DNA of 64,000 bases from Candidatus Poribacteria bacterium. GTDB lineage: Bacteria; Poribacteria; WGA-4E; PCPOR2b. The notes under the pieces are model-generated. The model worked only from the letters and a program-made list of their open reading frames with translations. It was not told where the DNA came from and did not search any database. The position numbers and the translations under genes are program-made. Where the stretch lies: the NCBI GenBank assembly GCA_965116925.1, contig OZ220744.1, forward strand, positions 3,488,001-3,552,000. The letters are read 5' to 3'. Positions 16,740-34,307 of this stretch are shown here, in pieces (positions within the stretch are counted from its first letter, which is position 1; every line of letters starts with the position of its first letter).

Positions 16740-18536
16740 ATGAACCAACTGATGGAAAAATGGGATTTATTCACACAACTAAGCGACCTCTTCACACCGA
16801 TGGACTGCAACCAGCAGGTGGAAGCGTATGACGCATTACTAGCGGACTGCCCCGATGAACAGAAGCCGATACTGACCGAAATCGCAGGCTTCGCTTCGAT
16901 TGCTGTTTTCGCCAAGCTCCACCTGTCCGATTACACCCGGCTGCCCTTCGGGGTGCACCACAAGGCATTCTTTGAGGCGATACCGCGTGGAGAACGGGGA
17001 CAGAAGGTGAATATCCTCGCACCGCGGGGCAGCGGCAAAAGCACGGGGATTACTGTCTTCTATCCAATCCACTGTATCTACTATAAGTATCTGTACGACG
17101 AGTTCGACATGAAGTCCGAGAAATATATCCTGATCCTGTCGCGGTCATACGGGAACGCCATTGACCGGATTAAGGACATCAAATCCGAGATCGAGATGCG
17201 TCCCTCTCTACAGCATCTCAAAGGCGATGACACATGGGGCGAGATGCGATCTATCACCGCAAACGACATCCTGCTCGTACCGCAGAGCCGAGGGGGCAAG
17301 GTGCGTGGCAGTCTTTATAAAGGCTTCCGTCCGACATTGGTGTTGCCCGATGATCTCGACGACATCGACAGCATCAGAAACCCCAACACACTCCAGAAAG
17401 ACGAGGAATGGTTCAACAGTGACCTCATGGAGTGCGGCGATGCGGACACCAACTTTGTATGCGTGGACACCGTCAAGGGCGAGCGAGCCATTGCGAATCA
17501 GCTCCGATATCGACCCGCGTGGCGGAACATTTTTATACAGGCTATCCCGACACCTGACCAGCTTGTGCATCCGGATGCCGAACACCTCTGGCAAGAATAC
17601 AGGAAAATCTATGCCAACACCGCCCTAGAGCCACAAGAACGCTCGATGCAGATGGAGGATTTTTGGACTGAGCATCAGAAAGAGATGAACGCCGGCGTTG
17701 AGGAGACATGGCGCGAGAAATGGACTTACCGGTCCTTGCGGGAGAAGGAGTTTGATCAAGGGCGTGCAGCGATTCTACGGGAATACCAGAACCACCCCGT
17801 GGACAGAGAGTTAGCAATCTTTGACATGGAGAACGCCGTCCGATTCACCGTTGAGAGCGACGGGCTGTTGCGGACAGATGAACGACTGGTGCGCTGGGAA
17901 CACTTGAGCGGGGCGACGATCTTTCTAGACTGGGCGGGCATCAAGGAGAGTCTCGACAACTGTTTTGCCGCGGTCGTGGCGATCCTATGGGAACCTGCGT
18001 ATAAATCCAGCTATTCGGATATGCAGACACTGGGAGCTTACGGCTACGTGCATCAAGTCTGGATGGAACGCGGTTCACGCGGTAAGCAGATCGAGGCGCT
18101 GTGCGATGTATACAGAAACGTCTACGACTTCTTGGCACTGCGTGTGCGAGCACAGTTTAAAGTCCACCTGTGTTGTGAGGACTTCGTGGATACGACCGGA
18201 GATCAGAAAGAAAATTTCCTGAGACATTATGAGAGTATCAGCTCGGCTAAAGAAATTTCGACACCACTTCAGTTTTTGCCACGCCAGCGGAATAAGGAGG
18301 AAAGAATAGCTTCGCTTGAAGCACCCATCGAAAACGGATGGTTGGCATTTCATAAGGAATTGCCAAAGATATTCATGGATCAGATGCGAGAATTCCCGAT
18401 CTGTGATTTCAACGATGGACCTGATAGCTGTGAAGGGGCATGGTCATGCAAAATCATCGAAACAGAAAATGAGCGTCAAGCCAGACGCGACAGAGCAAAT
18501 CAGCGCGTCCAGAGCAGCCGCGTCCTACAATTTTAA
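16740..18536 (+). CDS. terL: Phage terminase large subunit
   Basis: Walker A APRGSGKST, Walker B LVLPDDLDD, REYQNHP, NKEERI, C-terminal nuclease FNDGPDSCEGA. Confidence 0.9.
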   Translation: MNQLMEKWDLFTQLSDLFTPMDCNQQVEAYDALLADCPDEQKPILTEIAGFASIAVFAKLHLSDYTRLPFGVHHKAFFEAIPRGERGQKVNILAPRGSGKSTGITVFYPIHCIYYKYLYDEFDMKSEKYILILSRSYGNAIDRIKDIKSEIEMRPSLQHLKGDDTWGEMRSITANDILLVPQSRGGKVRGSLYKGFRPTLVLPDDLDDIDSIRNPNTLQKDEEWFNSDLMECGDADTNFVCVDTVKGERAIANQLRYRPAWRNIFIQAIPTPDQLVHPDAEHLWQEYRKIYANTALEPQERSMQMEDFWTEHQKEMNAGVEETWREKWTYRSLREKEFDQGRAAILREYQNHPVDRELAIFDMENAVRFTVESDGLLRTDERLVRWEHLSGATIFLDWAGIKESLDNCFAAVVAILWEPAYKSSYSDMQTLGAYGYVHQVWMERGSRGKQIEALCDVYRNVYDFLALRVRAQFKVHLCCEDFVDTTGDQKENFLRHYESISSAKEISTPLQFLPRQRNKEERIASLEAPIENGWLAFHKELPKIFMDQMREFPICDFNDGPDSCEGAWSCKIIETENERQARRDRANQRVQSSRVLQF

Positions 18537-18676
18537 CCCGCGAATCCGCTAATCATTGAAACAGTGACCCCGTAGGTTGGGTTGAGCGATAGCGAAACCC
18601 AACACTATGCCCAATGCACCAATGTCCCTTACGCATCACGCATTACGCATTATCTTGGTTAGGCATCATGTTTCAA

Positions 18677-19165
18677 TTAGGGACGAGGTACCGTCCGAAA
18701 CTTTATCGTCGTGTCGTGTCCCAGCTTCTCGTTGTCCCTGAAGATGATATCGATATGGTATTCCTTATCGTATTCGAGAAGAGTACTTTCAACCGTCCGT
18801 GTCATCCTGATGCAAGAGCCGATGTTGTCGCCAGTGAGTGCAGCGCGAGGGGACCACTTAAGGGACTCCCCATCAAGCAGGAGGTCAGCCTTAAACAGAC
18901 CTAAATCTTCATCAAACTCAAAAAAAATACCGTCCCGATTTAAAGGGACAGGATTTAAAGGGACAGGGTCAGCGCCGGGCTCCTCTGGGAGGACATCGCT
19001 CCTCACAATGTGTGGTGGAGATCGATCTTCACGATTGCCCTCCACAGTGGACAGAGGGTCTTCAGCAACGGGCGAGAGTTTCTCAGCAAAGGGTTCCTCG
19101 ACGACCTCTGTATCGGTGCCACAGCCAAGTATCAGGATAGCGAGAATCAATAACAAGATTTTCAT
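18677..19165 (-). CDS. Lipoprotein with an Ig-like domain (paralog of 20807..21295)
   Basis: Lipobox LILGC; GIFFEFDEDL shared with the paralog. Confidence 0.7.
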   Translation of the reverse strand: MKILLLILAILILGCGTDTEVVEEPFAEKLSPVAEDPLSTVEGNREDRSPPHIVRSDVLPEEPGADPVPLNPVPLNRDGIFFEFDEDLGLFKADLLLDGESLKWSPRAALTGDNIGSCIRMTRTVESTLLEYDKEYHIDIIFRDNEKLGHDTTIKFRTVPRP

Positions 19166-19252
19166 AACGCACCTCCTTATGATAAGACACCCCGTTATAT
19201 CTTATATTGTTGCAGTATGCTTCTATTTTAATCAGGAAAAAGGAGAAATAAA

Positions 19253-19357
19253 ATGCCACTATTTGTACAACCACTTCGTAGATTGAGTCCCTTGGAAGAA
19301 TACGCAGTTAATTCGGTTTTTGGTGGAACAATAGATCCAGGCAAAATGAACCAATGA
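19253..19357 (+). pseudogene. Truncated N-terminus of an HEXXH metallopeptidase-family gene
   Basis: AGGAG RBS, then MPLFVQPLRRLSPLEEYAVNSVFGGTIDPGKMNQ*. Resembles RKLYSWEIDTARNFFGDMID of 34749..35462. Confidence 0.5.
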
Positions 19358-19372
19358 ACTAACTGGAAAGAC

Positions 19373-20178
19373 ATGGCACAAGAGAAACCGTTTGAAAAAT
19401 TGAGACCAAATACGCAGAAAGCGATACGGAACGAGACAAAGCGGAAAATGGAGGGCAGATATCCGCGGACATGGATAGATGCTGCCCTCGGAATTGAGGA
19501 TCCGCCGTGGTGGTGGCAGGGAGTGACATGGCTGCCGGGTCGAGCGGCACCTGCATTCCTAACCGGTATTGGCGAAGGGATAGAAGGCATTGATATAATG
19601 CTCAGTCCGGTCGACACGGCACTAAAGCAGAACTTAGAACTCGCTATCGAAAATGCTGAGAAATACAGAAGGGTGAGGATTTACATAAAGAAATCCATGT
19701 GCAGCTTATCAATAGGGCTCCACAGTTTGAGAAAGTCCGGCTTAAATTGAACCTTCAGGATTTGGTTGATGACTCCGGCGCGTTTATGACATACAGCGAG
19801 GCTAAAAAGCGGTGGGGCGACAAATTAGTAAAAAAAGAATACGATTATTGGTATAATTATGTAGAAACCGCAGAATCTTCCTTTAACCTGACGCCAATCA
19901 AGCCCGTGGAGATTGATGGTGAGATAGTGAGGATGCGGTATCTTGGTGTCAATGGAAGCGACAGTTTTGACGTAATATATGATTACTTGGTTAGAAGGGA
20001 GTGGGACAACGTTATTAAAAAAGAGGAGGACAGGTCGGTGTTACAAGTGATACAGGGCGATGAGATTGGTGAAACATGGTCAGACGATGGGAAAGTTATC
20101 AAGCCGAAAGAAACGCTCGCTGTGTTTGATTTGGACGCGATAAAACGCTTTCCGTACACTGTGGGGGGACAACAATGA
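19373..20178 (+). CDS. Hypothetical protein, probably one frameshifted gene (ORFs 19373..19750 and 19699..20178)
   Basis: Overlapping ORFs in different frames; the second frame is open upstream of its GTG (GEDLHKEIHVQL). Confidence 0.45.
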
Positions 20179-20666
20179 AAATAACAATGAAAGGCTATGT
20201 ACCCTATCCAGAAGAGATTGAAATCGAGCGCAGGACAAATATCACGGACGAAGAAGTTAAAGCAGCCAAGGCACACACGCTAAGAGTAGTTATAGAAACA
20301 GGTTCAAGCTCTGAAGAGTTCAAACGCGCCGCACGCATTGAAGCCGCGCTCGTCTGGAAGCAATACGCGCTGAAGAAAATGAACAACCCAGAACTAAAAA
20401 TGGAAAGGTATGAAGCCTACCCCGAAGAAATTGAAATCTTCCGAAAGCCAGAAATTACGGACGAAGATATTGCAGAAGCCGACGCACAACTGCGAAAGGC
20501 GAGAAAGGAAAAAGGACGAGAATCTGATGAATACCGCCGAGCCGCACGCATCCGGTCCAGTCTCTTCTGGCGCCGATTCGGACTCAAGAATATAGAACGC
20601 GAAAGCGAAGATGAAGATAATACCGATTATGGAGAGTTAGATCGCATTACCGGTGTTAAGAGATAA
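20175..20666 (+). CDS. Hypothetical protein with an internal tandem duplication
   Basis: YPEEIEI...ITDE...RAARI...W...LK occurs twice. Confidence 0.65.
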   Translation: MKITMKGYVPYPEEIEIERRTNITDEEVKAAKAHTLRVVIETGSSSEEFKRAARIEAALVWKQYALKKMNNPELKMERYEAYPEEIEIFRKPEITDEDIAEADAQLRKARKEKGRESDEYRRAARIRSSLFWRRFGLKNIERESEDEDNTDYGELDRITGVKR

Positions 20667-20806
20667 TGACATGGATTAAAAAAGAGAGGGGGCAAGGTAG
20701 TAGGCATACTCCGTATGCCGTAACCTCCGTCCTAATATGGAGAAATAACTCACGTCCGGGGGGCGACTCAATGAACCAATGAACCAATGAACCAACTGAC
20801 TTAAGG

Positions 20807-21295
20807 CTAAGGGATTGTCCAAAACTCGATCTCCAGTTCGAGAACATTACCTGTGTTATCCCCGGCTAGCAGATCGATAAGATACTCCTTTCCGCGTTCG
20901 AGAAAAGGACCGTTGGCTGGCGGGATTAGCGTGATGGAGACGCCGATATCGTTGGCGGAGCGTATCACAGTAGGGCGCCAACCCAGCGACGCTCCATCGA
21001 GCGAGAGGTCAATCACAATCCGATGCAAATCTTCATTGAAATCGAAGAAAATGCCTTCCTTATTTAACCGGTCAGAATTAAAGGAAACCCTTTCATGTTG
21101 GGGGTAGATGTTGCTCTTTATAATCCGTGGTGGATCCAGATCGCCACGCTCCCCCTCCACATTCGGCCCGACTTCGTGAACAACGAATACTCTCGACTCG
21201 GATTCTTCGGCAATAGGCGGAGGTTCCTCAACGACCTCTGTATCGGTGCCGCAACCAAGCATCAGAATAGCAAGAACCAATAACAAGTTTTTCAT
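20807..21295 (-). CDS. Lipoprotein with an Ig-like domain (paralog of 18677..19165)
   Basis: Lipobox LMLGC; CGTDTEVVEEP identical to the paralog. Confidence 0.7.
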   Translation of the reverse strand: MKNLLLVLAILMLGCGTDTEVVEEPPPIAEESESRVFVVHEVGPNVEGERGDLDPPRIIKSNIYPQHERVSFNSDRLNKEGIFFDFNEDLHRIVIDLSLDGASLGWRPTVIRSANDIGVSITLIPPANGPFLERGKEYLIDLLAGDNTGNVLELEIEFWTIP

Positions 21296-21458: not shown

Positions 21459-23081
21459 ATGGCAGCAAAAATACACCCACTCCTCGAACTACGCGACGCC
21501 GCCTACGAAGCCGCAGCACCCGCACACGAGCGGATGAAAAATGAAATCAGCTTATACCGTAACGAAGACTACACCGGCGAATCGTGGATCAAACGGTTCA
21601 AGCGATCCGTCACACGCTCCATCAGCCCACAGATCAACACCGCAATCAATCGCCTCATCCCCGTTTTCACCGAGCAGATGGCGCACGTCAACGTCGAGCC
21701 TATCCGCAAGGACGCCAGCGAACTGGAACGGTTGGCAACCGATGAGCTCCAAGAACATCTCGACAACTTAGAGGCGGTCGATTCCGAGACCGAAGAGCTA
21801 CGCACGCTGATCCTGCACAACCAAGCCATGGGGAACGCTATCTCAAAAACGGTCTACGATCCCACGACCGAAATGGTCCGTGCCGTCGCGATTAACCCGC
21901 TGCGGTTCGCGCCGTCGCCGTATGCCACACGCTCAGACTTCAGGGGCGGCGGCTACGTCGTGCATACCACATATCACAACTATATGACCGTTTCTAAAAA
22001 ATATGCGGACGCACCCATTCCGAACAAACCGTATAATGACAGAGCGTTGATGGGCGGGAATATCCGCGTGGACGAGGTCTACATGACCGGCGAGATTGCA
22101 CGAGCGATCGGGATTCCGCGGTCGAAAGATTCAACGGTGGTGATCGCGACCATTGTGGACGACGAACCGTATCGAGCGAGCCACGACGATTTCTGGTATC
22201 CCGACTTCCCGTTCGCACACTGGCGCAACTTCCTTGATGTCAGCAGTTACGGCAAGCCGAGCGATTTCTGGGGCTACGGCTACGCCACGCTCCTGGAACC
22301 GCAGCAGAAGGTGTTAGACGAATTTCTTGCCAACTACATGTGGATTACACGAAACCTCGCCACAGGGCGGCTGTTGGCGCGGGAGGGCGTACTGGATCAA
22401 GAACAGCTCTCCAACTCCAGCGGCGATATTATTAATGTCCGAAACCTCCAGACAGGTGAACCGATCGGGAACGCCGTCCAGTTCGTTCAGAACCCCGAAG
22501 CACCCGTATCCCTGTTGAACATGATCCAGATGGTGAACCAGTTCATCAACGAGCAGGTGCCGTCACTCTCGCCGGTGTTCGCCGGTCAGTCGCCGGGTGC
22601 CTCCACGAGCGGGCGGGCAATTAGCAGCCTCCAGACAGCGGTGTTCAACCAACTGTCCGACAACATCAGAGATATGAACGCCTTCCGTGAACGGCGAGCC
22701 CGGATTCGGCTCAACTTTATCCAGCAGTTTGCCAAGCGATCGATGCAGCCGAACCGATGGCGGATGGGCTATGATCTACCGGAACTGTCCGAAGAGGCGC
22801 GGCATCAACCGTTCATGGTCTCAACCCCGGACACCTCCGCATTGCCGCAGACGCCGCTCGGCAAGTTGCAAGTAATCTCAATGCTGATGGGGATGGGGAT
22901 ACGGGTGAAACCGGAGCGACTGATGGAGATGGTCGGACTAAAATCAAGCTACGGCTTATCCGAAGCGGATCTGGTGCAGGCGATAACCCCGCCACCAGGG
23001 CTATCGCTAGGCAACCCCCAATCCCCAATTGACGAAGCATCCGTCGCCGGCTTAGAAACCGTACCACCCATTGAACGATAA
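21459..23081 (+). CDS. Phage portal protein (podovirus/P22-like)
   Basis: 540 aa, downstream of TerL; FWGYGYATLLEPQQ, SGDIINV, TSGRAISSLQ pattern typical of P22-like portals. Confidence 0.8.
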   Translation: MAAKIHPLLELRDAAYEAAAPAHERMKNEISLYRNEDYTGESWIKRFKRSVTRSISPQINTAINRLIPVFTEQMAHVNVEPIRKDASELERLATDELQEHLDNLEAVDSETEELRTLILHNQAMGNAISKTVYDPTTEMVRAVAINPLRFAPSPYATRSDFRGGGYVVHTTYHNYMTVSKKYADAPIPNKPYNDRALMGGNIRVDEVYMTGEIARAIGIPRSKDSTVVIATIVDDEPYRASHDDFWYPDFPFAHWRNFLDVSSYGKPSDFWGYGYATLLEPQQKVLDEFLANYMWITRNLATGRLLAREGVLDQEQLSNSSGDIINVRNLQTGEPIGNAVQFVQNPEAPVSLLNMIQMVNQFINEQVPSLSPVFAGQSPGASTSGRAISSLQTAVFNQLSDNIRDMNAFRERRARIRLNFIQQFAKRSMQPNRWRMGYDLPELSEEARHQPFMVSTPDTSALPQTPLGKLQVISMLMGMGIRVKPERLMEMVGLKSSYGLSEADLVQAITPPPGLSLGNPQSPIDEASVAGLETVPPIER

Positions 23082-23082
23082 A

Positions 23083-23110
23083 GTAGTAGGCACACTCCGT
23101 GTGCCGTAAC
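23083..23110 (+). repeat. REP palindrome family B (GTAGTAGGCACACTCCGTGTGCCGTAAC), representative copy
   Basis: Copies or variants near 16675, 20698, 23950, 29151, 34635, 37831 and 41459. Confidence 0.85.
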
Positions 23111-23176
23111 CATAACTGTTTTAACTTGACAACCAATGAGGTATATGGTAAAACAATCTCCCAAGGAGGTTAGCAA

Positions 23177-23491
23177 ATGCAAACAAGCCAAGTTATAACA
23201 ATCATAGTGTCCATAGTTGTTTCAAACGTTACACTCTTAGGCGGATTGATTCTAATCCTTCATAGAGCGACTAACAAGCGGATTGATGACCTCTCAAAAC
23301 GATTCGATGATACCAACAAACGATTCGATGATACTAACAAACGATTCGATGATACTAACAAACGATTCGACGACATTAACGAACGATTCAATGACATTAA
23401 CAAGCAAATCGACGCTATTAGAGAAGATGTCCGCATGATACTAAATTACCTACTGCCAGAAAATATGCAGAAAAACAGACGTAAACGATAA
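23177..23491 (+). CDS. Small membrane-anchored coiled-coil protein (KRFDDTN repeats)
   Basis: Hydrophobic N-terminal helix plus 21-bp coding repeats. Confidence 0.7.
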   Translation: MQTSQVITIIVSIVVSNVTLLGGLILILHRATNKRIDDLSKRFDDTNKRFDDTNKRFDDTNKRFDDINERFNDINKQIDAIREDVRMILNYLLPENMQKNRRKR

Positions 23492-23531
23492 AGTGGACCC
23501 ATTGTCGAGGTCAAAATAATCTAAAAATAAG

Positions 23532-23663
23532 GGCTCATGTAAAAAGAAAGTGCAAAACACGAAGCGAAATCGTAGGGGCGGGGTCTCCCCGCCCGCCGTA
23601 AGGGTTGGGGGACCCAACCCCTACGAATATTCGGTTTCTTTGCACTAAATCTTAACATGAGCG
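23532..23663. mobile_element. MITE, copy 2
   Basis: Near-identical to 16033-16164; perfect 8-bp target duplication AAAATAAG. Confidence 0.8.
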
Positions 23664-24001
23664 AAAATAAGTAAGATATCTGAGTCCCCGTAGGTTGGGT
23701 AGAGCGCAGCGAAACCCAACAATATACTTACATACCACGCATCGTAGGTACAGATTTCCCAATCTGTACTCAAGGCACGAACAAAAAACGTCGTAAATCT
23801 CCCCTGAAGGGGCAGTATTCACGACCTCATAATTGATTCATCCAGATCAACCCCGAAGGGGCGGTATCTGATGTTAATTCATCAGTTCATTTAACGAACC
23901 GATGAACCAACACAACCGCCAATTCGGGGTTTTTTATTGATCCACCAAAAGTAATAGGCACACTCCGTGTGCCGTAACCATTTACAAAAAGGAGAAAAAC
24001 T

Positions 24002-24541
24002 ATGGCAGACGAAACGACCGCCACCCCTGATCTCGAAACGGACAGCGATCAAGCCACAGACGACGCTGTAGACGTAGACACCGATCAGAGTGGCGAAGAC
24101 GGTGCCGAAAAGCAGCCACTGGGGTTTATGCAGTTCGCACAACAGTTTGTCGAAAGCGATCCCAGGATCCAGGCACTTCGAGACGCACCGGAACCCACAG
24201 CAGAGCAGCGTACCGATTTACGGCTGACAGCGATGGAGATTCAGCAGAACATTCGGCACGCGCAAGACGATTTCAAACGGCTGAACCCCGATGCGTCGGA
24301 GGTACAGGTCGAAGAGTATGTCGCGGCAGTATTTGAGCGCGACATTGTTACGGCGGACCGCATCCAGAAAGAAGTCCAGCGGAAACGCCAAGAGAAGGAA
24401 CAGGCAGAAGCCAACGATAAGAAAAGATCGGTGGCACTCAACACGACAGACACAGCGCAGGACGGCGGTGCGAAAGAGAACCGCTTCACTGGGCAAAACA
24501 CTGTAAACGGAATCCGAAGAATCCTCTTCGGCAACAGCTAA
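24002..24541 (+). CDS. Putative capsid scaffolding protein
   Basis: Acidic disordered N-terminus and helical core; lies between the portal and capsid genes. Confidence 0.6.
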   Translation: MADETTATPDLETDSDQATDDAVDVDTDQSGEDGAEKQPLGFMQFAQQFVESDPRIQALRDAPEPTAEQRTDLRLTAMEIQQNIRHAQDDFKRLNPDASEVQVEEYVAAVFERDIVTADRIQKEVQRKRQEKEQAEANDKKRSVALNTTDTAQDGGAKENRFTGQNTVNGIRRILFGNS

Positions 24542-26053: not shown

Positions 26054-26848
26054 ATGGATTTCAGCAGATTTGACTACGGGGCTTTGCACGAAGATCAGCG
26101 GGCAAGGCTCGGCATCGGAATTACTGATATTAACGGTGAACGTTGGGGCTACGTCCGGATACGCGAGGCGATGAGTTTTGGGCAGGTCGTCCGTTCAAGC
26201 AAGCACACCGACTTGGTATCGACAAACCCCGGCGCAGTTTCTGCAGCCGCACCCGTTGGCAGCGACAAGCTGACGACCGACAACGGCTTTCAACTTTCAA
26301 GCGTCACCCAAGATCTGCGAGGCGCGATCGGTTATATTTCGCAAGGAACTGGAGTCGGTCAGCAGTTCTACATCTTGGAGAACAACGACGACACAGCGAA
26401 GGTCTTTGTCCTGACAGGCGGCCTCAACCGCAATAAAAACAGAGGGTGGGTCACCGCGCTGGATAACACCTCCAAGTTCCTACTCTTTTTCCCCGGCGAA
26501 GGACGCCAGGGCGAGGGTGTAAGCGATCTGGTCGAAGGCGTTATCCAAACGGAGGCAACTTCAGACGACATCGGCAAGTTCTGCTGGGTGAAGCGTTCCG
26601 GAATCACCGCTTGCTTGGCAGATTTCGACGGAACCGATATAAGCGCGGGCGGCATCGTTGTCCCGGCAGCGGACGGCTTGGTCGCAGGACACAATACAAG
26701 TGCCCGTGGAATCGGTCAAGGGCTGGCTGCAACGGATCAATTGACTGCCAACACATTGGCGTTGGTGAATCTGAACATCCCTGACGGCCCCCTAAGCTAC
26801 GCCTATGCGCGTGCTACGAACGCTTTCAACGAGGCAACGATCCGCTAA
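26054..26848 (+). CDS. Putative capsid cement/decoration protein
   Basis: Directly follows the capsid gene; LG...D.NGERWGYVR...GQVV N-terminus; Gly/Ala/Thr-rich, beta-prone. Confidence 0.55.
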   Translation: MDFSRFDYGALHEDQRARLGIGITDINGERWGYVRIREAMSFGQVVRSSKHTDLVSTNPGAVSAAAPVGSDKLTTDNGFQLSSVTQDLRGAIGYISQGTGVGQQFYILENNDDTAKVFVLTGGLNRNKNRGWVTALDNTSKFLLFFPGEGRQGEGVSDLVEGVIQTEATSDDIGKFCWVKRSGITACLADFDGTDISAGGIVVPAADGLVAGHNTSARGIGQGLAATDQLTANTLALVNLNIPDGPLSYAYARATNAFNEATIR

Positions 26849-26931
26849 GGTTTATATAAAAAGAAAGCGCAAAGAAACCGAGTTTTTTCGGCAAAACTCG
26901 GTTTCTGTTGCACCATTTCTTAACATGAACC
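26849..26931. mobile_element. MITE, short variant
   Basis: Same termini family; flanks TCCGCTAA/TCCACTAA. Confidence 0.7.
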
Positions 26932-27034
26932 TCCACTAAAAATTGAAAGTGTGAAGGTGGGCGGTACATTTTTCTCACTTTCACACTTTCAGCTACTTTT
27001 GTTGAAAATCCCGATTTATCGGGGAGGTGTTGAG

Positions 27035-28045
27035 ATGACAGCCCGTGAAATTATCGAAGAAGCACAGCTATTAATCGGCGATCCAAATGTCGATTTCCAC
27101 GATCAAGACCGAATGCTTTTCGCGCTGAATCGTGCGACAAACCGAATATCGACGCGCAGCCGATCTATCCACGAACAGTGGCATCACCCGGTCATAGCGG
27201 GTCAATATCAATATGCGCTGCCACCGGGGACCCTCTATATCCGCAAAGCAAAATATAAGAACGGGACATGGTGCGACTTGGATCGGGGATTTTTTGACGA
27301 TGTCGAAGCACGCGCAGCATATCCGGGCGGCGGACCGCCGCGAACCTTTTCGCTATGGCAGAACGCGAGGGAGGAGCGATTTGTCGGCACGGTCGAAGCG
27401 GTTGAGTTTAACGAGCAGCAAATGCAGCGGCGCGTCACCTTTAACATGCCAAATACCGAAGGGGCAATCCGTTTAGGAGATTTGGTGTTCAACCTGTCCA
27501 TAGGTCACGGCGAAGGAGTTATCACCGCGATCTTCGATACAGATGACCCCAATAATACGACGCAGATTGCGTATTCCGCACTACAAGGCGGTACGCGGGA
27601 CCAATTCGAGGTAGGCGATCAGATTCGGATCACATCACCTCACACCAGCGGCCATGCGATGATTATCGCACCGGCACCTACCCGCAACGACGAAGCAGGC
27701 GAAGAGTCGATTGCAGTATTCGTGGCGCGACGGCATCGGGTAATCACGCCGAAGGAGATGGACAACGAGAACGACTCATTGGAGTTAGACGACGAATTTA
27801 ACGACACACTTATCTACGAAATACTACACTGGGCCCGGGTGCAAAGGATGGGGCTTGACACGACCGCACAGCTCTATCGGCGGCTCTCCAACGAGGAGTA
27901 TCTCCAAGCGATTCCGTTGGTCGAGAATCGAATCAGCCAGCGTCTAAATATGTGGGAACGCGGACTGACCGCCGGCGGTGCCTACAGAGATGTAGATGTC
28001 AAAAACACCACACAGAACGGCTTCAACAACGTTGTGGTGGCATAA
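27035..28045 (+). CDS. Putative head-tail adaptor protein
   Basis: MTAREIIEEAQLLIGD...LNRA...AGQYQYALP pattern typical of podovirus adaptors. Confidence 0.65.
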   Translation: MTAREIIEEAQLLIGDPNVDFHDQDRMLFALNRATNRISTRSRSIHEQWHHPVIAGQYQYALPPGTLYIRKAKYKNGTWCDLDRGFFDDVEARAAYPGGGPPRTFSLWQNAREERFVGTVEAVEFNEQQMQRRVTFNMPNTEGAIRLGDLVFNLSIGHGEGVITAIFDTDDPNNTTQIAYSALQGGTRDQFEVGDQIRITSPHTSGHAMIIAPAPTRNDEAGEESIAVFVARRHRVITPKEMDNENDSLELDDEFNDTLIYEILHWARVQRMGLDTTAQLYRRLSNEEYLQAIPLVENRISQRLNMWERGLTAGGAYRDVDVKNTTQNGFNNVVVA

Positions 28046-28332
28046 TAAGCCTTCACCAATCTTCAAAAGTCTGTAGGTTGGGTTGAACGCCTGTGAAACC
28101 CAACATTTACGCATTACGCATCACGTTTTAGGGTATCCGTGAATTTGGGGTTGCTTTGGCGGATAGGGGCCGTCAAGTGCTTCAAACAAAAAATGTTGAA
28201 CAATAGTCACTGTAAGGGGTAATACCCATTATAATCCTTCCTTTCTTGGGAGTTGGATAAGATTATGACCCTTATCCCGACTCAAGTTGATTTATGAGCA
28301 ACCCTTTAATTAAAAGTAAGGAGACATTCCCC

Positions 28333-29142
28333 ATGAAATTGAATCGGATACCCAAACCTATTCTCATAGCAACATTTATCGTCATCGTTTTGGTCGCGCT
28401 ATGGCACTTTGGATCCAATCGACAAATGCCCAAGCACATCACCGGTAAAGATGGCACCCCGATGGTCCTAATCCCTGCCGGCGAGTTTCAGATGGGAAGC
28501 GACGACGGTGAAGATGACGAAAAACCGGTCCACACCGTCTACCTCGATGCCTTCTACATGGATATCTATGAAGTGACCAATGCACAGTACGTAAAATTCT
28601 GTGAATCAACGGGACGTGAGCCCGGAGGGCATTGGAGTCACGGGCTACCCGGATATGGTCTTCCCAATCAGCCGGTCATGGGCAGAGCGTGGCAAGAAGC
28701 GGTGGAATATTGCGAGTGGGCGGGAAAGCGGCTGCCCACCGAAGCGGAGTGGGAGAAAGCCGCACGAGGCGGTTTAGAAGGAAAGAGATACCCTTGGGGT
28801 GATGAACCCCCTGACGAAACCAAGACAAACTTTAATAGGCATCGCAGATACCCGATGCCTGTAGGAAGCTATCCTCCTAATGGCTATGGTCTTCACGACA
28901 TGGCGGGAAATGTTGAGGAATGGTGCTATGATTGGTATCGTCCCGATTACTATCAAAACTCCCCGAAACGGAACCCGCAAGGGCCCGATTCAGGATTTCA
29001 TGGTCGGCGTGTCCTGCGTAGCGGGGATTCGACCAACATAGCGGAGGGAATTAGGTGTGCAGACCGAAGGGATCAAAACCCCAAGCCAAGGGGCATTCGT
29101 CATAATTATGGTTTTCGTTGCGCCAAATCGGTTTCGCAATAG
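28333..29142 (+). CDS. Formylglycine-generating-enzyme (FGE-sulfatase) domain protein, membrane anchored
   Basis: IPAGEFQMGS, EVTNAQY, RLPTEAEWEKAARGG, NGYGLHDMAGNVEEW, GFRCA. Confidence 0.9.
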   Translation: MKLNRIPKPILIATFIVIVLVALWHFGSNRQMPKHITGKDGTPMVLIPAGEFQMGSDDGEDDEKPVHTVYLDAFYMDIYEVTNAQYVKFCESTGREPGGHWSHGLPGYGLPNQPVMGRAWQEAVEYCEWAGKRLPTEAEWEKAARGGLEGKRYPWGDEPPDETKTNFNRHRRYPMPVGSYPPNGYGLHDMAGNVEEWCYDWYRPDYYQNSPKRNPQGPDSGFHGRRVLRSGDSTNIAEGIRCADRRDQNPKPRGIRHNYGFRCAKSVSQ

Positions 29143-29336
29143 CTGTTAAAGTAGTAGGCACACTCCGTGTGCCGTAACCAATGTTTTTCATGTTCCAATC
29201 TGGAGTTGAGCTCGTAGGTTGGGTTGAACACCAGTGAAACCCAACGCCTATCAACAAAGCAAAAACAGCTTTCACACTTTCTATCTTTACCGAAAGGAGG
29301 GAAGCGTGGACTTCCACATTTCACGCTTCACACACA

Positions 29337-29687
29337 ATGATACAACGAAAATCCGGAGAATTTAATGCAACCGCGGTGGATCTGGTATGGCAGCCGAAGG
29401 TCCAAGGCGCGGCACTACTGGTATTGGTCTCACTCGATCAGGCACCATCAACCGCTGCGAATATCGAAGTGACCTACGACAGCGCAGACGGTGAGAATTT
29501 CGACACCGTTGTTGAAGGGACAGACCCTGCGACATCTCCCGCTGCGGCGGACCTGACATTCTTGGTGGGGAATCCGCTGCCACTGCTCCGCGGCGATGCC
29601 GTGCGGGTCAAGTACACAAATCCCGACGCTAGAAGAGTCAACGTCACTATCATCGGGACGGACGATTATCTGATAGGAGGCAGCTGA
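29337..29687 (+). CDS. Hypothetical small beta-rich protein, possibly a virion component
   Basis: Co-oriented ORF within the structural gene series. Confidence 0.5.
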   Translation: MIQRKSGEFNATAVDLVWQPKVQGAALLVLVSLDQAPSTAANIEVTYDSADGENFDTVVEGTDPATSPAAADLTFLVGNPLPLLRGDAVRVKYTNPDARRVNVTIIGTDDYLIGGS

Positions 29688-29844
29688 AAAACCGTGCGTT
29701 GACAGGTATAAAGTTCCCCCCTGATAAGGGGGGCTAGGGGGGTTAGAGGGCAAAAAAATAAGAAATCCACCCCTCGCGCGTAACATAATTCTTACCCATC
29801 ACGCATCACCTATCACGCATCAATCACATGACAGGGAGAACCGA

Positions 29845-31638
29845 ATGGCTACATTGTGGCGAACCGAGAACTTTTCGAGTGGCATCCACACAAAACCCGC
29901 CCGCCTCGAAGGCGGCGAACGCTACGCCCGTGACATCGAGAACCTCCGCATCACGCATAACGGATTTATGAAATTGCGAGGCGGCTTTGAACCGATCGGG
30001 GGAAGCGGGCCCGACATCACAGGGATTGCCGCCACCACCCGTTACCTCCTTTTATTGCGAAGCGACGGCTATCTATACATCAGGGATATAAACAATCTGA
30101 ACGCCGAATCCCGCGTAGCAAACGTCGACCCCGCTACCGCCGGCTTGTCAGGGCGAATCTCTCTCGCATCACCCACCCCCGATTATCTGATAGTGACCAG
30201 CGAAGGCGACGACCTCGGCTTTTGGATAGACCTCAACAAGGAATCTACCACCTTCAAACACGCCTTTCAACTCGGTTTAGACGTGCCCCACGCCGCTCAG
30301 GTAGCAGCCATTGGACACACCACCACCGGGACCGGGTTTTCAGGCGATGGCTGGCTCCGCTACAGGTTGACATGGCTCCGAGACGCACCCGGCGAGCCGT
30401 TTGATGGCGCAGAAAGCAGTCCATCAGGCACCGTCGATGTCAATGTTATCGGCGGCGGCACAATCAACATCAACAATATCCAATTCCCGACCGACCCCCA
30501 AGTCACCCACCTCGCAATCTATCGTAATCGGGAACTGGTGCCTGAACAGAGCGATCTCACCCTCAACGCCGCCGACCTGCACCGCATCGCAACCGTTTCA
30601 AGGGAGAACCGCATTGTCGGATACATCGACGATAACAGCGCAGATTTTGACAACGGCGTCGAGATTGAACTTTTCAATAACCGATTGCCACCGGGCGTAA
30701 AACAGATTCATTTCCACCAAAAAAGGATTTTCGCAGCAGCAGGCAACAGGCTCGTATATAGTGCTTTCAATCACCTAACCCCCCAATATTGGCGGTTCAC
30801 ACCCACCAATTCTCAGCGCAGACCCGACGCCGGAGATATTACCTTCTGCGCCAGCCACCGTGAAGTCCTTTTATTCGGTGCACAGGACGGGCTCTTCAGA
30901 CTCGACGGCACGGACAACTTCGATTTTCAGGTTGATCAGATCTCAGGGGCTGGACCACGCGACGGATACAGCTGGGGGGTGTTCGAGAACACACTCGGCT
31001 TTGTCTCAGGAAGGGGCTTCCATGTGACCGACGCATCGAACAGCGATTTAGTCAGCGACGAAAGCCTTGACCAGTTCTTTACCGGGCAGCAGATAGAGCG
31101 GGGGCTCGTCGGTTTTTTCTCCGATAACACCCTCATCTTTTCCGTGATACTTCGCCCCATAGACGGCGGGGACACCAAGCAGAGCTACTTTCTTTTCGAC
31201 GATCGACACTGGACAAAATGGAGTGCCGCAAATGTCCTACAATTCGCGACCATCAACGGGCAGGTGTATATCGCAGGGAGTGACCGATTGCATCGGATTA
31301 AGTGGGAAGAAGGCGACAACACCGATACTGCCCTGGACTGGGCGTATGAATCAAACCTAATTGACGGCGACGCATTCGGCATACAGTCGGATCTCAAGCG
31401 ATTTACAGAACTCTATATCAACGCCGCAGCAGGCAGTCGCATCGTCCTCAAGACATGGAAGGACGACGATGAGATGCCCGTCAAGCAAACCTTTACGACG
31501 CGGGACAGCACCGACAGCAACGTTCAAACTGTTCTCATCGAACGAATCGCACGGCGGCTCAGGTTTCGCCTCGAAGGCGTGGGACCCGTAACGATTCGGG
31601 GCTTGTGCCTTGAAGGTAACGCAGAAAAACGGGTATAA
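29845..31638 (+). CDS. Putative tail nozzle / DNA-stabilisation protein (P22 gp10/T7 gp12-like)
   Basis: NFSSGI...ARDIENL...G.MKLRGG N-terminus, propeller-like repeats, C-terminal KRF...ARRLRFRLEG; synteny. Confidence 0.65.
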   Translation: MATLWRTENFSSGIHTKPARLEGGERYARDIENLRITHNGFMKLRGGFEPIGGSGPDITGIAATTRYLLLLRSDGYLYIRDINNLNAESRVANVDPATAGLSGRISLASPTPDYLIVTSEGDDLGFWIDLNKESTTFKHAFQLGLDVPHAAQVAAIGHTTTGTGFSGDGWLRYRLTWLRDAPGEPFDGAESSPSGTVDVNVIGGGTININNIQFPTDPQVTHLAIYRNRELVPEQSDLTLNAADLHRIATVSRENRIVGYIDDNSADFDNGVEIELFNNRLPPGVKQIHFHQKRIFAAAGNRLVYSAFNHLTPQYWRFTPTNSQRRPDAGDITFCASHREVLLFGAQDGLFRLDGTDNFDFQVDQISGAGPRDGYSWGVFENTLGFVSGRGFHVTDASNSDLVSDESLDQFFTGQQIERGLVGFFSDNTLIFSVILRPIDGGDTKQSYFLFDDRHWTKWSAANVLQFATINGQVYIAGSDRLHRIKWEEGDNTDTALDWAYESNLIDGDAFGIQSDLKRFTELYINAAAGSRIVLKTWKDDDEMPVKQTFTTRDSTDSNVQTVLIERIARRLRFRLEGVGPVTIRGLCLEGNAEKRV

Positions 31639-31668
31639 ATCCACAACACACTACAAAAGGAGATTACA

Positions 31669-32634
31669 ATGCCATACCACGATGAAGGATTCGGAGATAC
31701 CGAATTTGACCCCAAAAACAACCCACATGACAGAAAAGTGGTCGAGCGATACGGCGGCAAGAAAGCAGCAGCGCAACTCAAGAGCAATAAGCAGGGCAGT
31801 TTTCCGAGCGCGAAAGATTGGGCAAAGATGTTTATACCGCAAGCCAACGATCCGAATCATGTAAAAGCGGGTAAAATTATCACCTTAATTACCGCTGCGG
31901 CTGCCGGCGCACATTCGTTTTGGCCCGCTGCTGCGACACCCGCTGCTGCGACGCCACCAGCTTCAACACCATCGGCAAGTCCGGGAGAAGTGTTTGGTCC
32001 CCCCGCACCGGCAGAGGTGCCTACAGACGGAACCGATTGGGGCAAAGCCATCTCGGATTTTGCCAAAGAGAACTGGAAAGAGATCGGCGATACCGTCCTC
32101 AGTGCAGGTAACTGGATCTACGACCAATTGACCACATCTCCAAAAGAGGCACTGGAACAGGAATTCCACGCCTCACGGACAGAACGGCTCCTGGATCTCA
32201 GACGGCACGCACGCGGCGATTTCTCACAAAGCGAACGGGCAGCAATCATGAAGGCTTACGAACCCGTCTACCGCCGCGTATTACGCAATTTAGCCACCCG
32301 CGGCATCTCCGGTGCCGCTGAAGCCCAAATCCTGGCTGAAACAGAACAAGCCCCGTTCCTCATGGCGCAACAGCACGCAATCGCGCAACTCGATGCTTAC
32401 GAATTGGAAAGCTTCAAACTCCTCCATGAAATGACAGAGGACGATCCCAACTTTTTCGACATGACCCAACAACTGATTCAGAAATGGGGCAAGGTAGACG
32501 GGATGACCGGTGGGCAAGACACAGAATTGGCACGACTCAACCAAGAGATTAACCGTCTAACCCACGCTGTCACTGAATACGAAGAACTTGTCAACGAACT
32601 AAAAGGAGATCAAGATAATGCCACCCCCCGGTAG
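31669..32634 (+). CDS. Putative internal virion (ejection) protein
   Basis: Ala/Gln-rich and helical; NLATRGISG; follows the nozzle gene. Confidence 0.45.
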   Translation: MPYHDEGFGDTEFDPKNNPHDRKVVERYGGKKAAAQLKSNKQGSFPSAKDWAKMFIPQANDPNHVKAGKIITLITAAAAGAHSFWPAAATPAAATPPASTPSASPGEVFGPPAPAEVPTDGTDWGKAISDFAKENWKEIGDTVLSAGNWIYDQLTTSPKEALEQEFHASRTERLLDLRRHARGDFSQSERAAIMKAYEPVYRRVLRNLATRGISGAAEAQILAETEQAPFLMAQQHAIAQLDAYELESFKLLHEMTEDDPNFFDMTQQLIQKWGKVDGMTGGQDTELARLNQEINRLTHAVTEYEELVNELKGDQDNATPR

Positions 32635-32707
32635 GTGCGGTTTGCAACCGCACCGGTTTGGAGTGTCTCATTAATTCCAATATCCACTATAAAAGGAGAT
32701 CAAGATA

Positions 32708-33655
32708 ATGGCAGCTGAAAGAACCGTTGACCGAAACATCGTCAAAGCCACCTTGGCGGCAGGACTACACGCCGCTAACAGTTACGCCGATTTCAAACTC
32801 GCCCAACTCACCGAGCGGGACGAACGCCAGAAGGAGATGCGCCGCTATAATCTGGACAAGGCACGCGCCCGCATCAACAATCAAAAATCTACCATCAACG
32901 CGCTCTCTAAACAGGTCGAAGCAATTAACGCAGACCTCAAGGAAAAGAAGAAGCACCGGGCACTCGGCATCGAAGAGGCTCCACTCGCAGAGACGGACAC
33001 CACGACGGCACCGAGCACGGAGGTTGACCGGAAAACCGCCGAAGCGGTTGAGAAATATATCGCGATGAATGCAGCATACGCCCGCCACGGACTTATCTCA
33101 CCCGACACACAGAAACAGTTAGACCAAGTAATCAACCAATTCATGAACAGCACAGGCAGTGAGCAAGTCTACCGTAATTTGATCGATGTCCGCCCACTCT
33201 TTGAGACCCTCGAAACCTACAAAGACAACTTGGACCCAGCCGCCGCACCGCGGATTGACGGCGCGCTCCGTAAACTCCTTGCGCCTGATAGTGTGGCGAT
33301 GCAAGGTGAAGTTGAAGCCTACAGCGCGCATCGCGGCTACTACGATGAGCTCCTGGAATTACGCAAACGGTTAAAAAGCGGATCCGCACTCACGCCACAG
33401 GAACGAAAGAGCGCGTACAAATTAGCCCAAGCCCTCCAAGAGTTCTATATCGACGAGGCGAACACGCTCAAAGAGATATTGGTGGAACATATTCAAGCAT
33501 TAGGCATACTTGGCATCACAGACAGCAACGGGCAGAAAATCCTATCAGCCGATCCCGATTTCCTACTGTCCGCTATTGACATGTCTCAATTCGACTTGAG
33601 TGAGCCTGCGCTTGGGGACGATGGCGATACAACCGAAGAGGCAACCGAGGCATAA
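32708..33655 (+). CDS. Putative internal virion protein / helical hypothetical protein
   Basis: Coiled-coil rich; good RBS; synteny. Confidence 0.4.
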   Translation: MAAERTVDRNIVKATLAAGLHAANSYADFKLAQLTERDERQKEMRRYNLDKARARINNQKSTINALSKQVEAINADLKEKKKHRALGIEEAPLAETDTTTAPSTEVDRKTAEAVEKYIAMNAAYARHGLISPDTQKQLDQVINQFMNSTGSEQVYRNLIDVRPLFETLETYKDNLDPAAAPRIDGALRKLLAPDSVAMQGEVEAYSAHRGYYDELLELRKRLKSGSALTPQERKSAYKLAQALQEFYIDEANTLKEILVEHIQALGILGITDSNGQKILSADPDFLLSAIDMSQFDLSEPALGDDGDTTEEATEA

Positions 33656-33839
33656 GATGCAGCGGGAAACCGAGTTTTTTCTTGAAAACTCGGTTTCTGT
33701 TGCACCATAAGAAACCGCAAGAAAATTGTAAGATCGGAAAACTGGCGGTGAAAGTTCCATCCAACCTTCCCTGCTTTTCTTTTCTTTCTTCCTCTTTTTT
33801 TAATATTTTACACTTTATTCTGACATAACCCCACACAAA

Positions 33840-34307
33840 ATGTACAAACTCACCACAGACCGACAAAACCAACTCTGCGCCCTAATTGCAGAGGGTATGA
33901 ATAAATCAGAAGCCTCCACTGCCGTAGGGATTAGCCGGAGAACACTGAATAACTGGTTAAAAAAAGGCGCAGCGAAACAGACCGAGCGGTATACAGAATT
34001 TTATAACGCATACCAACTCGCGGTGCAGGTATCGTATCAAAAGCTTTGCCGACAAGTCCTTGAGGACGATATCCAGATACGCACAGAACTGGACGCAAAC
34101 GGGGATGTGCTGAAGACTGTGAGGACGGAAACTCGATCGTGGCGGCAGGCAGCATGGCTACTCGAAAAACGGTTCCCACACCTGTTTCGCGAGCAGATCG
34201 AGAAACCACCCACACCAAAGGACACGCCGCAGCCACCCAACTACACCGCTCTCAGTGCACTAATCAAACAGTTTGAAGAGGAAAATGAAACGCAGCGTGA
34301 AACGTAA
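33840..34307 (+). CDS. HTH protein, terminase-small-subunit-like
   Basis: EASTAVGISRRTLNNWLKKG helix-turn-helix plus SWRQAAWLLEKRFP. Confidence 0.55.
   Translation: MYKLTTDRQNQLCALIAEGMNKSEASTAVGISRRTLNNWLKKGAAKQTERYTEFYNAYQLAVQVSYQKLCRQVLEDDIQIRTELDANGDVLKTVRTETRSWRQAAWLLEKRFPHLFREQIEKPPTPKDTPQPPNYTALSALIKQFEEENETQRET

Follow-up and report, generated by a model that had tools for sequence, protein, structure and literature searches.

A podovirus-type particle gene set held at one chromosomal locus in a Poribacteria clade: a candidate grounded prophage with gene-transfer-agent-like potential

A stretch of 64,000 nucleotides from the chromosome of a Candidatus Poribacteria bacterium (G000:C1:3488001-3552000, here called the window; genome G000 is a single contig of 6.47 Mb) carries a podovirus-type particle gene set at 16.7-34.3 kb, which is confirmed here as real and as having intact structural open reading frames (ORFs). 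The element to which these genes belong reaches beyond the 16740-34307 stretch singled out by a first-pass annotation of the same DNA and spans about 16.4-54.4 kb, or roughly 38 kb. The reading that we favour, and consider somewhat likelier to be right than wrong, is that of an old temperate podovirus-like prophage whose head, neck and nozzle are of SU10/P22 type and whose terminase (TerS/TerL) is of the headful kind, and which became fixed in the chromosome, has been kept intact and would package host DNA in place. The case for a domesticated or grounded prophage with potential akin to that of a gene transfer agent (GTA), and for a particle that the host may use, is good but unproven.

TerL was searched for in 19 other genomes of the same genus (g1; genomes are numbered G000 onwards), the window was compared with 80-kb stretches around the TerL gene in five of them, and the capsid profile was searched against 151 genomes of the phylum. 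ORFs of at least 45 amino acids across 13.6-56.9 kb were scanned with the hidden Markov models (HMMs) of Pfam, PHROGs and NCBIfam. Non-synonymous and synonymous divergence (dN and dS) are Nei-Gojobori estimates, mostly pairwise against G000. The sequencing runs that contain related sequence are labelled sponge metagenome. The packaging, head and neck genes, all of them single copy in the G000 genome, are as follows.

16740-18536, plus strand: large terminase subunit TerL (phrog_38, E 1.9e-43), intact and single copy, dN/dS 0.08-0.10
21459-23081, plus strand: portal of P22/SU10 type, intact, 540 amino acids in every carrier, dN/dS 0.05-0.10
24002-24541, plus strand: scaffold candidate with an acidic N-terminus, placed by position and composition between portal and capsid
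24650-25861, plus strand: major capsid protein of HK97 fold, 403 amino acids (AlphaFold model and Foldseek)
26054-26848, plus strand: orf264, a conserved head/neck protein (the 'cement-like' gene, so labelled from position and composition), dN/dS 0.09-0.21 against G000
26951-28045, plus strand: head-to-tail adaptor of SU10 type (PF24175 SU10_adaptor, 2.3e-7; phrog_399), dN/dS 0.12-0.18
29337-29687, plus strand: small structural-module protein, 116 amino acids, 80-93% identity in all carriers and 35% in G105
29845-31638, plus strand: nozzle or tail-hub candidate, 597 amino acids, fast-evolving (weak phrog_511, 4.5e-5)
31669-33655, plus strand: two tail-region proteins of 321 and 315 amino acids, with partial homologs in relatives and in genus g11
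33840-34307, plus strand: small terminase subunit TerS with an Sf6/P22-type helix-turn-helix (phrog_4102, 5.8e-16; Sf6_terminase, 3e-4), at the 3' end of the module

The identities proposed for TerL, portal, adaptor and TerS are borne out by HMM matches, and that of the capsid by a fold search. The Walker A and B columns of TerL are invariant in a 10-sequence alignment. The portal call is upheld by PF16510 P22_portal (3.3e-10; 39.6 bits against a cut-off of 26.1) and phrog_156 (1.4e-14), with PF23899 SU10_portal (2e-6; 27.0 bits) falling under its 30-bit cut-off; the adaptor scores 31.9 bits against a cut-off of 27. Searches against the sequences of solved structures gave nothing under E 0.3 for adaptor and portal, weak beta-sandwich noise for the nozzle candidate and no match for the capsid profile. 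The capsid protein itself matched no HMM family: a Pfam scan of 12 homologs at E<=10 returned chance matches, and PF17236 SU10_MCP was not matched directly even at E<=10, with 2 of 49 aligned homologs reaching it at 4.4e-6. A profile search of 1.84 billion representatives yielded 77 homologs, and the 49-sequence alignment gave an AlphaFold model with a pLDDT of 81.5 and a pTM of 0.80 (an earlier 12-sequence model with a pLDDT of 33 was discarded). Against the PDB, this model has 293 Foldseek matches at E<=0.001; among the matches listed, all are HK97-fold capsids or encapsulins, including the SU10 capsid (E 1.2e-8). Capsid clusters also make up 26 of the 30 Atlas neighbours of the protein.

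The remaining labels of the first-pass annotation fare unevenly. That of a nozzle stands as a lead: the Atlas neighbours of the ORF at 29845-31638 are viral in 30 of 30 clusters, the nearest named one being the P22-gp10-type PF11134 (0.95), and the ORF probably encodes a tail hub or nozzle. Scaffold, cement and helical are labels drawn from position and composition; no HMM match was obtained in the three libraries for the scaffold candidate, which is duplicated in G005, G002 and G007, nor for the two proteins at 31669-33655. The 'cement-like' orf264 always lies immediately 3' of the capsid gene, also in genus g11, G105 and G111 (28-39% identity). Short-tailed phages usually follow the order TerL-portal-scaffold-capsid-adaptor-nozzle, and the claim of a canonical podovirus order mostly holds, except for TerS, which lies about 15 kb downstream of TerL. 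At a TerL locus of another genome, G026, a TerS homolog stands directly upstream of TerL. All structural ORFs are full length by comparison with their orthologs in relatives, as had been proposed. Promoter and terminator consensus scans stayed at chance level (16 against 15.6 expected; 32 against 23.7 +/- 5.2).

Beyond the particle genes, the element holds the lysogeny switch and replication module of a temperate prophage, namely a repressor, an O-like gene, DnaA boxes and iterons, with a block of minus-strand genes between these and the late region.

16403-16458, plus strand: five tandem DnaA-box-like 9-mers of TGTGGATAA type in 11-bp phase, about 280 bp upstream of TerL
44524-49495, minus strand: block of genes for a PIN-domain protein, a 177-amino-acid ORF, a defence-like AAA_21/AAA_15 ATPase, a phrog_3136 protein and a GNAT-domain protein
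50040-50235: origin-like region with two adjacent DnaA boxes, a third box and a repeated 16-mer
51759-51944, plus strand: small toxin-like ORF (matches of the 51759-53389 group: phrog_353, 2.4e-12; phrog_678, 1.6e-5; phrog_186, 2e-4; PF13730)
52038-52595, minus strand: O-like/DnaD-like replication gene (matches of the same 51759-53389 group)
52595-53389, minus strand: 264-amino-acid partner gene of the O-like gene
53657-54370, plus strand: S24 CI/LexA-type repressor, intact (PF00717, 4.3e-21; phrog_4, 9.9e-35; HTH_3)

The repressor gene is oriented divergently from the O/DnaD-like gene; its product has a serine motif (GDSMAP) with a lysine downstream of it, as well as a Cys-Gly site, and its dN/dS against G000 is 0.04-0.07. 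Its distribution tracks that of the element, with intact copies in G000, G005, G018, G007, G004, G002 and G019 and broken ones in G008 and G003, and a true LexA (28% identity) is encoded elsewhere in those genomes that have LexA. The DnaA-box array at 16403-16458 is the probable left end, origin or control region; the cluster upstream of TerL is kept in G004, G002, G007 and G018 and is not present in G005, and the two-box cluster of the early region is kept in 6 of 6 genomes. Three of the genome's six tandem DnaA-box pairs lie within the window. The arrays bracket the element, the early-region boxes having the opposite orientation to the array upstream of TerL. Judged from their sequence, the boxes might serve as an origin, in DnaA titration or in control of the late genes by DnaA. 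Because the repressor, the O/DnaD-like gene and the DnaA-box and iteron regions have been kept, the element is described as a grounded prophage rather than as a bare cluster in the style of a GTA. The earlier proposal of a domesticated bare particle set survives as regards selection and residence, and needs changing in view of the retained repressor and replication genes, the dispensability of the element and the mosaicism of its genes.

The defence-type genes at the early end vary by species: PIN and AAA_21/AAA_15 in G000 (44524-46689), AbiJ and DUF2971 in G004, AAA_21 alone or with DUF4435 or DUF3696 in G005, G002 and G018, and a C5 methylase with HATPase in G002.

The element is held at one place. 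Full-length TerL, at 86-93% identity, occurs in 5 of the 19 other genomes of the genus (G005, G004, G002, G007 and G018), and in all five the element sits at the same locus: G005 is collinear with the whole window, both flanks included, and G004, G002 and G007 share the right-hand genes together with a left flank of GHMP/GT1 polysaccharide genes. In the fragmented assembly G019 the genes for portal, capsid, adaptor, TerS and a nozzle-like protein are intact and lie together on a 17-kb contig, with the repressor on another. By rpoB, the nine genomes nearest to G000 (94-97% identity) include every carrier and remnant, so that syntenic orthologs are confined to one clade with a shared locus; the ten more distant genomes of the genus are without the structural genes. 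Within the nine, the TerL of G018 carries one TAG stop, its portal through TerS are lost and its repressor survives; the TerL search found fragments in G008 and G014 and at a second site in G002; and G001 (rpoB 96%) has no trace of the element. The remnants in G008 lie in two places about 3.9 Mb apart (TerL/portal against repressor/O-like/DUF3800 fragments; 5535380-5537869 and 1659122-1661862), which indicates rearrangement through a decaying element.

Where the particle genes persist, they are clearly under purifying selection. Identity to G000 is 88-97% for the portal, 91.5-97.5% for the capsid, 78-96.5% for orf264, 78-95% for the adaptor and 66-88% for TerS, and over some 4,000 codons compared, five further carriers show neither stops nor frameshifts. 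The dN/dS of the capsid is 0.04-0.09 against G000 and 0.01-0.11 over all pairs, that of TerS 0.22-0.31 against G000, and the structural genes and repressor together range from 0.04 to 0.31 at a dS of 0.15-1.1 (TerL dS reaches about 1.5 between G018 and G004/G002). A ratio near 1 is refuted by these values. The pairwise dS of TerL, portal, capsid and repressor groups the genomes as (G000, G005), (G004, G002), G007 and G018, and rpoB does likewise; TerL dS is 2.0-2.9 times rpoB dS in 7 of the 8 pairs compared, the exception being G004-G002. The flanking genes give similar depths: against G005, dS is 0.14-0.42 in element genes and 0.14-0.33 in the flanks; against G007, 0.33-1.0 and 0.59-0.76; and between G004 and G002, 0.06-0.15 in the element and 0.12 in a flanking GT1-like gene. 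The rpoB-like grouping and flank-like dS fit descent with the host since the ancestor of the clade. Together with the shared locus and the low dN/dS, they support the long residence under selection that had been proposed from the window.

Almost every junction between the structural genes has received host-type material, as the first-pass annotation noted, and this material can now be traced to genome-wide repetitive extragenic palindromes (REPs), to miniature inverted-repeat transposable elements (MITEs) with target duplications and to multi-copy gene families.

16033-16165: MITE just left of the element, its GC-rich hairpin core lying between inverted ends, with a 7-8-bp target duplication
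18576-18603, plus strand: REP_A hairpin immediately after TerL
18677-21295: guest block between TerL and portal, with lipoprotein paralogs, small ORFs, REP_B and AATGAAC repeats
18677-19165 and 20807-21295, minus strand: lipoprotein paralogs with an LGC lipobox, from a family of 11-15 genome copies
19373-20666, plus strand: three small ORFs within the TerL-portal guest block
23086-23990: portal-scaffold junction, with REP_B (23086-23111), a coiled-coil gene, a MITE and a second REP_B (23954-23979)
23177-23491: gene for a membrane-anchored heptad coiled-coil protein, 5 copies in the genome
23531-23666: MITE with target duplication AAAATAAG, in the portal-scaffold junction
26862-26930: MITE remnant with a REP_C hairpin, common to G005 at the same junction
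28077-29245, plus strand: guest cassette of REP_A, formylglycine-generating enzyme (FGE)-sulfatase gene, REP_B and REP_A, between the adaptor and the 116-amino-acid gene
28294-29142, plus strand: FGE-sulfatase gene (PF03781, 2.3e-62), from a family of 14-18 genome copies
34334-44390, plus strand: island of REP-bounded leucine-rich repeat (LRR) lipoprotein genes and small lipoprotein paralog genes (Pfam LRR; lipoboxes)
34334-34415: MITE remnant at the start of this island

Three REP hairpin families and an AATGAAC repeat, all on the plus strand, occupy the junctions. The REP families have 38, 97 and 173 sites genome-wide at <=2 mismatches, the window accounting for 10, 8 and 4 of them, and the AATGAAC repeat has 361 sites at the same threshold, 15 of them in the window; by this share of the genome-wide sites, both are enriched here. 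Inside structural ORFs the number of these motifs is zero in G000 and in every relative checked, and in the window none of the MITEs or guest genes falls within a structural ORF either, in keeping with the earlier claim. An alignment of 7 MITE copies shows conserved terminal inverted repeats, exchangeable hairpin cores and 7-8-bp target duplications; copies of the MITE at 23531-23666 are 97-100% identical elsewhere in the genome and 80-93% identical in every genus member listed. Two MITE/REP_C insertions are common to G000 and G005 only and one more is private to G005; together with the REP_A that follows the adaptor in every carrier, such insertions imply that insertion began before the clade split and has continued since.

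The same junctions differ between species in length and cargo. The portal-scaffold junction measures 923 nt in G000, 4545 in G005, 1375 in G007, 1187 in G004 and 3244 in G002, and the distance from adaptor to FGE gene is 251, 588, 1490, 2896 and 1945 nt in the same genomes. Among this cargo, G005 carries genes for an IS630 transposase and a polysaccharide deacetylase, and G004 and G007 carry two or three FGE copies. The lipoprotein gene at 20807 is kept at the TerL-portal junction in 5 of 5 relatives, and REP_A stands immediately after the adaptor in 6 of 6 carriers. The FGE junction holds one to three copies in G005, G004 and G007, with a tandem run of three in G007; it has no copy in G019, whose module is compact, lacking the FGE gene, the coiled-coil gene and the MITE and keeping the REP_B after the portal and the REP_A after the adaptor. 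A recent origin of the FGE gene by copying from a resident gene was rejected, the other paralogs in G000 being only 31-46% identical to the element copy; among these 13 paralogs REP_B lies near one and REP_A near none, and a chromosomal FGE copy at 85% nucleotide identity is found in the non-carrier G009. The LRR lipoproteins of the 34.3-44.4 kb island have 47-124 paralogs genome-wide. Between the capsid gene and orf264, G004 and G002 carry a free-standing GIY-YIG/NUMOD3 homing endonuclease gene on the opposite strand (L019:8655-9302 and L023:4608-5306), which is not present in G000, G005, G007 or G019.

A cassette pattern, with REP_A upstream and REP_B downstream of genes, recurs in the window at 28077-29245 and in the three FGE cassettes of G007 (L026:11300-15750), and the genes at 34.3-44.4 kb are spaced by the same REP hairpins; such an arrangement suggests that REPs mediate the insertion or amplification of cassettes. 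Word depth jumps 10- to 150-fold exactly in the junction bins. The highest word depth of the region, about 12,400 against about 85 in X1, is reached at 13336-14669 (from a 152-amino-acid ORF to the GHMP kinase gene) and indicates a very high-copy repeat there.

The functions by which a phage would move, lyse and infect were not recognised. As the first-pass annotation had it, HMM scans of the window ORFs show no integrase, lysin or tail fibre, and the families of lysis, fibre and polymerase proteins found no match in the ORFs scanned. The genome has three tyrosine recombinases (PF00589), all far away, so that none lies in or beside the element, and it has no resolvase (PF00239) and no match to PF01510. 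No integrase, resolvase or lysin appeared among 68 scanned ORFs from the copies of five relatives (66 without a homolog in the window and two long nozzle-like ones), and family scans of the element ORFs recognised no tail needle, fibre or ejection protein. The window contains no tRNA gene, and no flanking direct repeats stood out among the 20 largest repeat families, no search having been aimed at attachment sites. The empty site in G001 was not located, neither the left-flank DNA nor the O-like protein being found in that genome, and the contig joints all run between repeat copies and are not evidence of excision. In composition the element departs mildly, and not decisively, from its host (GC content of 51.5%, the genome as a whole having 49.2%; a tetranucleotide distance in the 94th percentile).

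Viral relatives are distant. TerL alone gave no match in IMG/VR and its alignment drew only relatives at 21-31% identity; the capsid alignment matched nothing in IMG/VR or in JGI metagenome contigs. The 165 spacers of the genome's own CRISPR arrays gave only chance matches of 15-16 nt to the window, to the elements of relatives and to all loci compared. Searches of the literature on Poribacteria prophages and on GTAs of sponge symbionts, supplements excluded, turned up no description of an element like this one among the papers listed.

The module has a counterpart in another genus. Capsid matches occur in 17 of the 151 genomes of the phylum, always as a single copy: 6 of 20 in this genus (including G000), 8 of 9 in g11, 2 of 57 in g14 and 1 of 2 in g17. 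Genus g11 belongs to another family, and its proteins are 23-39% identical to those of the window. The order in five g11 genomes is capsid, orf264, adaptor, nozzle, an orf321-like gene, portal, a 187-amino-acid gene, 5.6-17 kb of variable sequence and TerL, with a shared GT1 gene left of the module in 3 of the 5. Apart from these g11 genomes, G111 has the window gene order in circularly permuted form. Pfam assigns to the g11 genome G051 an SU10 adaptor (PF24175, 44.3 bits), a P22 portal and HNH and Schlafen/AlbA guests, and no repressor, integrase or replication gene. Between g11 genomes the capsid is 95-97% identical, the portal 86-92% and TerL 84-89%, with dN/dS values of 0.03-0.07, 0.04-0.09 and 0.05-0.15, respectively. 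Elements of the two genera also have two accessory genes in common, homologs of those at 51063-51488 and 54671-55426 of the window.

According to the scenario that we favour, the prophage would have entered an ancestor of this Poribacteria clade and lost its integrase before the clade diversified, to be inherited vertically since. Host REPs, MITEs, insertion sequence (IS) elements and gene cassettes would have settled in the junctions while selection kept the packaging, head and neck ORFs. The S24 repressor would keep the element silent until RecA-type self-cleavage; excision would then be impossible, as there is no integrase, and without excision replication would start in place, from the DnaA-box/O-protein origin. 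TerS and TerL would go on to fill capsids by headfuls from the chromosome, and the DNA inside the particles would come from next to the element or from the host chromosome at large, as happens in lateral transduction or with a GTA. Even when read conservatively, the locus is a natural experiment in which a head-and-packaging set stayed intact across speciation while its junctions filled with host DNA, and the parallel module in g11 permits comparison.

Several observations weigh against this scenario, and most of them speak for an autonomous temperate phage with one preferred site, whose integrase, lysis and receptor-binding genes would sit among the unannotated ORFs or be supplied by the host, whose selection would stem from infectious cycles and whose clutter would reflect active host REPs and MITEs. 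Such a phage is unlikely overall, yet it is the rival to be taken most seriously. The repressor with its catalytic motifs, the O/DnaD-like gene and the origin-like repeats are kept as in a live temperate phage, and an integrase, lysin or fibre could hide, since many ORFs match no known function. Descent has not been purely clonal: in G007 the portal, capsid and orf264 lie nearer to G000/G005 than TerL does, the adaptor lies nearer to G004/G002, and orf264 differs strongly between G004 and G002, a gene-by-gene mosaicism that points to exchange with other copies. The host baseline consisted of one gene, rpoB, and a few flanking genes. In g11 the gene trees are mutually discordant and capsid dS is often under rpoB dS, which implies that exchange between species was stronger there. 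The homing endonuclease in G004 and G002 likewise suggests exchange between element copies, as with infecting phages. Outside G005 the nozzle and its neighbours are hypervariable and rearranged (40-54% identity, different order or position in G004, G002, G007 and G019). The distribution within the genus is patchy, with full-length TerL in 5 of 19 other genomes, once with a stop, plus the portal and capsid of G019; and the element is dispensable, being broken in G018, reduced to fragments in G008 and G014 and gone from G001. Passages of one study (PMC8245591) describe a sponge virome contig assigned to Poribacteria, which may or may not be related to this element, as homologous to integrated prophages. 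Against an autonomous phage stand the want of an integrase in or beside the element and in the copies of five relatives, and of a resolvase in the genome; the fixed locus with its host-like pattern of dS and flank-like values; the species-specific MITE, IS and gene insertions within the late operon; and the lack of close relatives in IMG/VR or JGI metagenome contigs. Unique element sequence also has the depth of the chromosome, at 72-118 against 82-92 for the flanks in X1 and 7.8-14 against 11.5-15 in X2, read depth being taken here as the word depth of contigs, a rough measure.

If the particle were no longer made, single genes might have been kept for host uses such as superinfection exclusion, defence or a capsid-shell compartment, the rest having not yet decayed. 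The repressor would suit this, as the best-kept gene and one that survives in G018 without the structural block, and so would its neighbouring defence genes, which are PIN and AAA_21 in G000 and AbiJ and AAA_21/DUF4435 in relatives. The low dN/dS is, however, shared by TerL, portal, capsid, orf264, adaptor and TerS, in two genera, which fits selection on an assembled machine and not on one gene, and the ATPase motifs of TerL are kept; we regard this alternative as improbable. An ordinary cryptic prophage in neutral decay, with ORFs intact by chance or youth, would account for the decay seen in G018, G008 and G014 and for the missing integrase and lysis genes. It is nevertheless the least credible account, because dN/dS values of 0.04-0.3 at dS 0.3-1.0, alike in g11 and with no stop or frameshift in the five further carriers, exclude neutral decay; nor are the orthologs recent transfers, their dS not being far under that of the flanks. 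At the other extreme, the favoured prophage scenario could be extended to a new family of podovirus-derived gene-transfer particles in at least two genera of Poribacteria, with no excision, in-place packaging of host DNA, firing in this genus under the SOS response by way of the retained repressor, a pac site near TerS and the downstream LRR/WD40 'eukaryote-like' arrays packaged most. This we consider doubtful. If true, it would give sponge symbionts a dedicated means of passing host-interaction genes to one another, and the REP, MITE and cassette load of the junctions would mark a late operon freed from the need to fit inside its own capsid.

The closest parallels by mode of action may be GTAs and lateral-transducing P22-like prophages; by family they are the short-tailed phages of SU10/P22/Sf6 type, at very low identity. 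GTAs package more or less random host DNA, in amounts too small for the whole cluster, and deliver it to other cells; the known ones occur in few lineages and are mostly long-tailed. Like those of the RcGTA type, the present element consists of phage-derived head and packaging genes that are chromosomally fixed, vertically inherited and under purifying selection, without an integrase and with a fast-evolving part for host recognition. Its capsid model also matches the RcGTA capsid (6tb9, E 1.2e-7), the HK97 fold being common to both. That is, however, one of 293 generic HK97-fold matches, and no specific sequence relation was seen, the best matches being to P22, SU10 and Sf6 families. The neck and nozzle are of the short-tailed SU10/P22 type, in contrast to the siphovirus-like tail of RcGTA; the junctions are full of host repeats and genes, and a CI-like repressor and replication genes are kept, whereas RcGTA is a compact operon. 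The element is moreover lost or broken in several close species. GTAs lack integration, replication and lysogeny-control genes of their own and are controlled by host regulators; the present element has no integrase and keeps genes of the other two kinds, and G051 of g11 showed none of these. The element is therefore not filed as a GTA, owing to its own repressor and replication genes, and GTA-like packaging and transfer remain candidate functions. A short-tailed GTA in an uncultured, animal-associated phylum, if true, would widen the range of virus domestication and provide a means by which sponge symbionts come to exchange genes as heavily as they do.

Among phages proper, SU10 (Kuravirus) and P22/Sf6 share the portal, adaptor and TerS families with the element, and the capsid model matches SU10 chains. 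The element differs from them in its very low identity, the lack of a direct Pfam match for the capsid, the position of TerS at the far end, the guest genes between almost all structural genes and the lack of recognised fibres, needle and ejection proteins. Vertically inherited, defective ('grounded') enterobacterial prophages under purifying selection were reportedly described by Bobay, Touchon and Rocha in 2014. They resemble the element in lacking mobility functions, in keeping to one conserved locus and in a dN/dS far under 1; the differences are that the head and packaging set is complete here, that the carriers are separate species of an uncultured phylum, that REPs and MITEs have invaded the element and that a second genus holds a parallel module. 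Capsid-forming phage-inducible chromosomal islands (cf-PICIs) are small, have an integrase and a replication module, lack neck and nozzle and depend on helper tails. They share with the element a capsid, portal and terminase of their own on the chromosome, and the EcCI2 capsid is among the fold matches; the element, in contrast, is about 38 kb long, has no integrase and has an adaptor and a probable nozzle. P22-like prophages are reported to replicate and package host DNA in place before excision, in lateral transduction (PMC8575938). In these and the staphylococcal pac prophages the terminase is of pac type, as here, and packaging in place would fill heads with adjacent host DNA. This mode alone would be open to the present prophage, which has no integrase; known prophages merely delay excision, whereas here, judged from the genes, excision appears impossible.

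Some further observations concern other loci. Up to eight TerL matches per genome, at 33-55% identity, occur in G023 and G026-G028 (genus g5) and in g11 genomes, and no capsid match was found in the four g5 genomes. At the G026 locus a TerS-TerL pair is followed by large proteins without assigned function and a helicase-like gene, with no portal or capsid, and at a G045 locus TerL is followed by unassigned and ABC-transporter-like genes; these extra loci may belong to terminase-carrying elements of another kind. In the CRISPR array at about 4.93 Mb, one spacer is a perfect match, over 36 of 36 positions, to the chromosome that carries the array (G000:C1:2175205-2175240). Finally, the open frames of rpoB range from 1379 to 1797 amino acids within the genus (L113-L132), and in G004, G003, G010, G012, G013, G006, G015 and G016 additional sequence after residue 250-310 or so divides the rpoB match into two pieces, which points to a lineage-specific insertion in the beta subunit.

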